A DNA stretch of 64,000 nt from Escherichia coli (GTDB lineage Bacteria; Pseudomonadota; Gammaproteobacteria; Enterobacterales; Enterobacteriaceae). This document shows positions 49,901 through 50,788 of the stretch, one piece after another (position 1 is the stretch's first letter; every line of letters starts with the position of its first letter). The notes under the pieces were generated by a model. That model did no database searches. It saw nothing but the letters and a program-made list of their open reading frames with translations, and was not told the origin of the DNA. The position numbers and the translations under genes were made by a program. The DNA lies in assembly GCF_002854065.1 (NCBI RefSeq), contig NZ_CP024147.1, one strand, 5' to 3'.

Positions 49901-50788
49901 TCAGGAGAGATATTTATCGAACCATTTCAGTGTCCTTTGCCAGGCAAGATCGGCGGCAGATTTGTCATAACGGGGCGTGGAATCATTATGGAATCCGTGA
50001 TTAACCCCCGGATAGATATACGCCTCATAAAACTTATTATTGGCTTTCAACGCCGCCTCGTAAGCAGGCCAGCCCTCGTTGATTCGGGTGTCCAGTTCCG
50101 CGAAGTGGAGTAGTAAAGGCGCTTCAATCTTCGCCACATCGGCAGTGGGTGCCTGACGACCATAAAACGGCACTGCGCAGGCCAGTTCCGGGTAAGCGAC
50201 CGCTGCCGCGTTCGATACGCCACCGCCATAGCAAAATCCGGTAATACCCACTTTGCCTGTCGCTTGCGGATAGCGTTGCATAAACTCAATTGCGGCAAAG
50301 AAATCATTCATCAGTTTGGTTGGATCAACCTGCTGTTGCAGCTCACGACCTTTATCATCATTTCCCGGATAACCTCCAACGGAACTTAAGCCGTCAGGTG
50401 CCAGGGCGATATACCCCGCCTTCGCCACTCGCCGTGCCACATCTTCGATATACGGATTCAGTCCACGATTCTCATGCACCACCACCACGGCTGGCGTTTT
50501 GCCGCTCATTTTTGCGGGTTTAACCAGATAACCCCGTACCTCGCCGTGACCATTTGGCGAAGGATACGTGATGTACTCAGCAAAAATCTCCGGGTCGGTA
50601 AACTCTACCTGAGTCGCCAGCGCATAATTTGGCTTGAGCAAATCAAACAACGCTAATGCCGTCATCCCGCCTACCGCATACTTCGCCGCAAGGTTGAGGA
50701 ACTCACGTTTCGAGATTTTCCCGTGAGCATAATAGTCGTAGTAATCCAGCAACTCTTGTGGGAAATCTTTGGCGGTTAAACGCGGCAT
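49901..50788 (-). CDS. yghX: Dienelactone hydrolase-family protein, apparently intact (about 295 aa)
   Basis: ORF in track; start set at MPRLTAKDF with GAGGAG Shine-Dalgarno upstream; alpha/beta-hydrolase GFCYGG nucleophile elbow. Confidence 0.7.
   Translation of the reverse strand: MPRLTAKDFPQELLDYYDYYAHGKISKREFLNLAAKYAVGGMTALALFDLLKPNYALATQVEFTDPEIFAEYITYPSPNGHGEVRGYLVKPAKMSGKTPAVVVVHENRGLNPYIEDVARRVAKAGYIALAPDGLSSVGGYPGNDDKGRELQQQVDPTKLMNDFFAAIEFMQRYPQATGKVGITGFCYGGGVSNAAAVAYPELACAVPFYGRQAPTADVAKIEAPLLLHFAELDTRINEGWPAYEAALKANNKFYEAYIYPGVNHGFHNDSTPRYDKSAADLAWQRTLKWFDKYLS

Follow-up and report, generated by a model that had tools for sequence, protein, structure and literature searches.

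Does the Escherichia coli DNA analysed here, a window of 64,000 nt, encode a working copy of yghX, a gene that the MG1655 annotation lists as a pseudogene (b4658) with a small gene, yqhI (b4755, 47 aa), placed over its 5' end? The original prediction took yghX to be a frameshifted pseudogene in K-12 and described, in this window, a single open reading frame of about 295 aa with a GAGGAG ribosome-binding site and an intact GFCYGG nucleophile motif. We examined the reading frame and its start, compared the locus with K-12 and other E. coli, and considered what the encoded protein may do and where in the cell it may act.

The yghX reading frame and its comparison with K-12

The window contains one yghX frame, on the minus strand at positions 49901 to 50788, made up of 295 codons and a TGA stop, so the predicted frame was found at exact coordinates. 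NCBIfam model NF041440, Pfam family PF01738 and the annotation of the same span in strain CUWW06 all support this coding sequence. The ATG start codon occupies 50786 to 50788 and the TGA stop codon 49901 to 49903. The predicted ribosome-binding site was also present: a GAGGAG Shine-Dalgarno sequence at 50796 to 50801 (minus strand), separated from the ATG by a 7-nt spacer (TGCAACG) and present as the same sequence in K-12. In the mechanical list of open reading frames, the frame can be extended to a GTG at 50833, which would give a protein of 310 aa. We took the ATG as the start because the homologues all begin with MPRLTAKDF or MTRLTAKDF and because K-12 YqhI shares this ATG; on these comparisons the ATG, rather than the GTG at 50833, is the real start of yghX.

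YghX matched the NCBIfam model NF041440, "YghX family hydrolase," with 585.4 bits, above the curated whole-protein cutoff of 460 bits, and residues 3-294 covered all of the profile (positions 1-292 of 292). The match to Pfam PF01738 (DLH) scored 164.3 bits (E = 4e-48) over profile positions 1-217 of 217, exceeding the gathering threshold of 21 bits. These scores, and the mostly synonymous differences from the BL21 allele, led us to reject a chance open reading frame. The first 36 residues matched a further family, Pfam PF23678, "YqhI-like," a domain that is named after the K-12 frameshift stub.

The K-12 counterpart, b4658 together with yqhI, is the same locus as the window yghX, lies between yghW and gpr, and has the same start and ribosome-binding site; 870 of 885 aligned bases are identical (~98%, counted from the listed differences). 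Pairwise alignment showed the K-12 copy to be broken rather than intact, in agreement with its b4658 annotation and with the original prediction. Two deletions were located, of 2 bp at codon 37 and of 1 bp at codon 157, with stop codons between them. The first removes the TA of codon 37 (TAT; window 50679 to 50680, minus strand) and is found in K-12, HS, and H8. The second removes the C of codon 157 (ACC, within CCAACCAAAC; window 50319, minus strand) in K-12 and H8, while this base is present in HS and BL21. The window sequence is intact at both sites, and we conclude from the alignment that its yghX is a functional allele and not a K-12-type pseudogene.

After the 2-bp deletion, the K-12 frame runs to a stop at codon 48, and its product is the published YqhI, MPRLTAKDFPQELLDYYDYYAHGKISKREFLNLAAKCGRRDDGISVV. 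Residues 1-36 of YqhI correspond to the n-region and KR motif of the signal-like segment of YghX and are followed by 11 out-of-frame residues. K-12 yghX therefore yields only the 47-aa YqhI, whereas the window frame encodes 295 aa. YqhI is translated in K-12 from the yghX ATG and has been detected at its 47-aa size by chromosomal tagging (PMC6001520), and yqhI RNA is increased at low Mg2+ in K-12 (PMC11429745).

Catalytic residues and structural relatives

The GFCYGG motif is intact, as predicted, at residues 184-189 (window 50222 to 50239, minus strand). Its Cys186, encoded at 50231 to 50233, aligns with residue 123 of ClcD and is conserved in at least 90% of homologues. The other candidate catalytic residues were located, also on the minus strand, by alignment to a ClcD variant: the triad acid Asp233 (50090 to 50092), which aligns with ClcD Asp171 and is invariant in 32 homologues; the triad base His264 (49997 to 49999), which aligns with ClcD His202 and is kept as His in at least 90% of homologues; and Glu106, in an HENRG motif (50471 to 50473), which aligns with ClcD Glu36. 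Together, the Cys186/Asp233/His264 triad and Glu106 correspond to Cys123/Asp171/His202/Glu36 of ClcD, in which the glutamate is the partner of the triad cysteine.

An AlphaFold model of the full YghX chain (pLDDT 96.5, pTM 0.93) superposed on PDB 4ZV9 with a 1.0 A rmsd. The 4ZV9 structure, deposited at 2.0 A as an uncharacterised protein, is YghX of E. coli O157:H7 Sakai and thus the same gene as the window yghX, without the first 58 residues. Over the 236 aligned residues (aa 59-294), we observed only 3 mismatches (~99% identity). One is at residue 59, Ala in the crystallised chain and Thr in the window, at the N-terminal edge beside the chain's 2 unaligned residues. The two in the body of the protein are Asn for Ser135 of the window and Val for Phe253, while Phe69 is common to the window protein and that of O157:H7. 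Phe253 (TTT, window 50030 to 50032) is Val in K-12, HS, H8, and BL21 as well as in 4ZV9; the change is probably neutral, since the position is variable among homologues.

Of more distant structures, ClcD of Pseudomonas (PDB 1DIN and variants) has the same alpha/beta fold as YghX (Foldseek probability 1.00; TM of 0.80-0.85 for the target), and its Cys-His-Asp triad and Glu36 have counterparts in YghX, but identity is just 24-26% and ClcD lacks the N-terminal extension. By analogy with the ClcD mechanism, Cys186 of YghX would attack the carbonyl group of a substrate that is an ester, lactone or thioester. The substrate-binding Arg206 of ClcD aligns with Asn268 of YghX, and therefore dienelactone need not be the substrate of YghX. 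The closest solved homologue besides YghX itself is PDB 3F67, a putative dienelactone hydrolase of Klebsiella pneumoniae (E = 5e-23, 28% identity). Its nucleophile motif is GFCWGG, the counterpart of GFCYGG in YghX, but it belongs to a different subfamily and has no match to YghX residues 1-82.

The N-terminal 58 residues

The segment that precedes the crystallised domain, residues 1-58 (window 50615 to 50788, minus strand), may be a Tat-type signal or a structured module. It consists of an n-region (aa 1-36), the motif K27-R28-E-F-L, an A/G/T-rich stretch and K52-P-N-Y-A-L-A58. Tat signal peptides have the same layout, with an n-region, [RK]R-x-F-L, a weakly hydrophobic stretch and a basic residue before AxA. 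In E. coli YghX, residues 27-31 are K-R-E-F-L, and the motif in its context reads S-K-R-E-F-L-N, compared to the Tat consensus S/T-R-R-x-F-L-K. Of 96 YghX-family representatives that keep the N-terminus, 76 carry RR here and 15 carry KR; [RK]R-x-F-L is thus present in 91 of the 96, followed by an A/G/S/T-rich stretch and by AxA ~30 residues further on. A natural KR variant of the twin-arginine motif has been described for Salmonella TtrB. In YghX, D49 comes directly after YAVGGMTALALF, and the AxA takes the form A56-L-A58.

These features are consistent with a Tat-type signal that has KR in place of RR and would be cleaved at AxA after Ala58, releasing a mature protein of 237 aa that would then work in the periplasm. 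The 4ZV9 chain, which was crystallised without the N-terminal region, can be aligned to YghX only from residue 59. Two features of the segment speak against a cleaved signal: the motif is KR and not RR in E. coli, and the acidic D49 falls within the hydrophobic stretch. We found no paper in a literature search for Tat export of YghX or of a dienelactone hydrolase. Weighing the sequence features on both sides, we regard Tat export with cleavage after Ala58 as an evenly balanced proposition.

The main alternative is that the 58 residues fold into a three-helix cap and are retained on the enzyme. The enzyme would then be cytoplasmic or membrane-attached, with RR/KR-x-F-L serving a structural role or acting as an uncleaved anchor. 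AlphaFold modelled residues 1-60 at pLDDT 91-95 with helices at 11-21, 27-37, and 44-51, within a full-chain model whose pTM of 0.93 was noted above. Compared to Tat signal peptides, the n-region is unusually long and conserved: in the 20 residues before the KR motif, the consensus LYDxYxH is kept down to ~40% identity. Even distant homologues differ little in the spacing between RR and AxA, and the stretch after the motif contains conserved Gly, Pro, and acidic positions. Like the predicted helices and the conserved n-region, this constant spacing also speaks against a simple cleaved signal. A retained cap must be set against the succession of [RK]R-x-F-L, a variable A/G/S/T-rich stretch and AxA, which is the classical Tat layout, and against the 4ZV9 chain, with its alignment beginning at residue 59 after 2 unaligned N-terminal residues. 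We consider a retained cap possible, though short of probable. A related and somewhat more tentative suggestion is that the N-terminus of the YghX family is more than a disposable Tat signal, and instead forms a folded module with the twin-arginine motif at its centre, such as a cap docked on the enzyme before export or an uncleaved anchor; we think this rather unlikely.

Conservation, expression and spread of the lesions

To place the window allele among other E. coli, we examined 5,426 complete genomes and found the yghX locus in 5,425. A 56-base probe spanning the K-12 junction of the 2-bp deletion had an exact match in 1,248 of the 5,426, and the K-12 form of the 1-bp junction had an exact match in 1,197; as only exact matches were counted, both figures are lower bounds. 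About 250 more genomes appear to carry the 2-bp junction with one SNP, an estimate scaled up from a sample of 60 evenly spaced rows, 3 of which covered the 56 bases without a gap. HS and an O6:H16 ETEC strain are among the carriers, which come from human, cattle, chicken, food, and water sources. RefSeq flags the yghX of HS and H8 as "frameshifted" and annotates the BL21 copy as intact. One 4.83-Mb record labelled "DH5alpha" (NZ_CM135829.1) has 57 bases at the codon-157 junction and so is without the 1-bp deletion of K-12; the junction and the record size suggest that the label is wrong.

Elsewhere in the Enterobacteriaceae, full-length homologues of 294-299 aa with 85-91% identity are present in Citrobacter, Pseudescherichia, Enterobacter, Kosakonia, Leclercia, and Lelliottia. 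On these comparisons, the intact gene is both the majority state, which some three quarters of the complete E. coli genomes show, and the ancestral one, and the lesion is broader than K-12, affecting by our count about a quarter of sequenced E. coli. The original prediction had suggested that the source strain retains functions lost in K-12. This stands insofar as yghX is intact here; the strain is not special in this respect, as roughly three quarters of genomes have the gene intact and more than 1,200 have frameshifts.

We compared the window and BL21 alleles and found 10 codons that differ synonymously and 4 that differ non-synonymously, as would be expected under purifying selection. In the alignment, the 52 bases upstream of the ATG are identical to K-12 but for one base, and the K-12 counterpart of this region drives YqhI translation. 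Upstream of yghX, a consensus scan of the minus strand did not reveal a sigma-70-like promoter. A constitutive sigma-70 promoter has been published between yghX and yghW, downstream of yghX, and is assigned to yghW. We think that yghX is probably transcribed on its own. Could the frame nevertheless be silent or decaying in the source strain too, with nothing functional retained? The empty promoter scan, the lack of a reported function in the literature searched and the tolerance of loss in more than 1,200 genomes would all fit such a state. Against it stand the prevalence of synonymous changes (10 vs. 4), the retention of every catalytic residue, the conservation of full length across genera, and an upstream region that matches, in all but one of 52 bases, the one from which YqhI is translated in K-12. 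We therefore consider silence or decay very unlikely.

HS (positions 1121 to 2006 of the stretch compared) carries only the 2-bp deletion, whereas K-12 and H8 carry both. Because HS has the first deletion without the second, the 2-bp deletion came first and the 1-bp deletion arose later in an already dead gene. The two deletions of K-12 sum to -3, so that the last 138 codons are back in the original frame. We rejected the idea that this total keeps K-12 yghX working, given the stop at codon 48 and several more stops in the shifted segment. An alternative in which K-12 is not really defective, its frameshifts being an error in the reference sequence, a mutation acquired in the laboratory or a case of programmed frameshifting, might draw on the same restored frame but is essentially excluded by the recurrence of the junctions in ~1,200 independent complete genomes of human, animal, food, and water origin, by HS with the 2-bp deletion alone, by those stops, and by the detection of the product at 47 aa.

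Taken together, it is highly likely that the window encodes an intact yghX with a working-type start signal, that the gene product, 295 aa long, is an alpha/beta hydrolase of the dienelactone hydrolase (DLH) family in which the Cys186-His264-Asp233 triad is complete and Glu106 is kept, and that this gene is dead in K-12 and in a large group of related strains, having lost first 2 bp and later 1 bp. The type of substrate proposed for the enzyme is taken from ClcD.

Genomic context of the window

Between positions 13613 and 64000, 14 bases distinguish the window from strain CUWW06, isolated from wastewater in Thailand, and none of these bases lies within yghX; before 13613 the two are not colinear. 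At 12508 to 13276, an IS1 copy links a yggS-to-speA block, at its speA end, to what remains of the pheV island, followed by glcA. The yggS-to-speA block is colinear with LY180 and reversed relative to the K-12 order. CUWW06, otherwise 99.97% identical, has upstream speC, yqgA, tRNA-Phe, type VI secretion (T6SS) and fimbrial genes and a second IS1. The junction at 12508 to 13276 looks like an IS1-mediated inversion or rearrangement.

The original prediction also remarked on an intact ygh lipid island that K-12 has lost. We found ~9 kb between yghO and yghR (26445 to 35453) that are missing from K-12, where an IS5 sits at the site of the loss, between yghO and a 3'-truncated yghQ. The region encodes a fatty acyl-AMP ligase, an epimerase/dehydratase, an acyl carrier protein, a serine palmitoyltransferase, LptF/LptG-like permeases, a YtfJ-like protein, and a full-length yghQ-like gene, and this gene content suggests a sphingolipid-like lipid cluster. 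Position 34867 is C in the window and T in CUWW06; the yghQ-like gene of CUWW06 carries an "internal stop" flag, whereas that of the window is open over 449 codons. The loss of yggR, noted alongside the island, was likewise borne out. This gene for a PilT/PilU-type ATPase (934 to 1914, plus strand) is split into open reading frames at 859 to 1392 and 1350 to 1913 by the loss, compared with strain LY180, of 1 bp near 1310, in the region of the Walker A motif GATGSGKST.

Function and significance

The papers searched on YghX report no substrate, activity or physiological role for the protein and no carboxymethylenebutenolidase (EC 3.1.1.45) assay, and yield only integration-site uses, transcriptome lists, and an old polymerase guess. 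The last of these, based on fold, proposed YghX as a cPHB polymerase, as cited in a review (PMC3709699). The "pseudogene yghX locus" of W3110 is in routine use as an integration site (PMC7677707). The neighbours of distant YghX homologues are unrelated genes only, with no conserved operon partner and no functional hint. All parts of the yghX finding are already on public record, namely, in the RefSeq product name with its model, the annotation of the K-12 copy as a pseudogene, the papers on YqhI, the 4ZV9 structure, and the integration-site use in W3110.

For E. coli as a species, the results mean that findings on yghX and yqhI made in K-12 are not transferable to most strains, and that the "neutral" yghX integration site of metabolic engineering is predicted to be a live gene in BL21 and most wild strains. 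YqhI is what frameshifting has left of a larger enzyme, and this origin is relevant to the interpretation of its phenotypes. If the N-terminus of the family does prove to be a folded module, then the K-12 protein YqhI, a small protein investigated as stress-induced, would represent the front half of the module, left orphaned.
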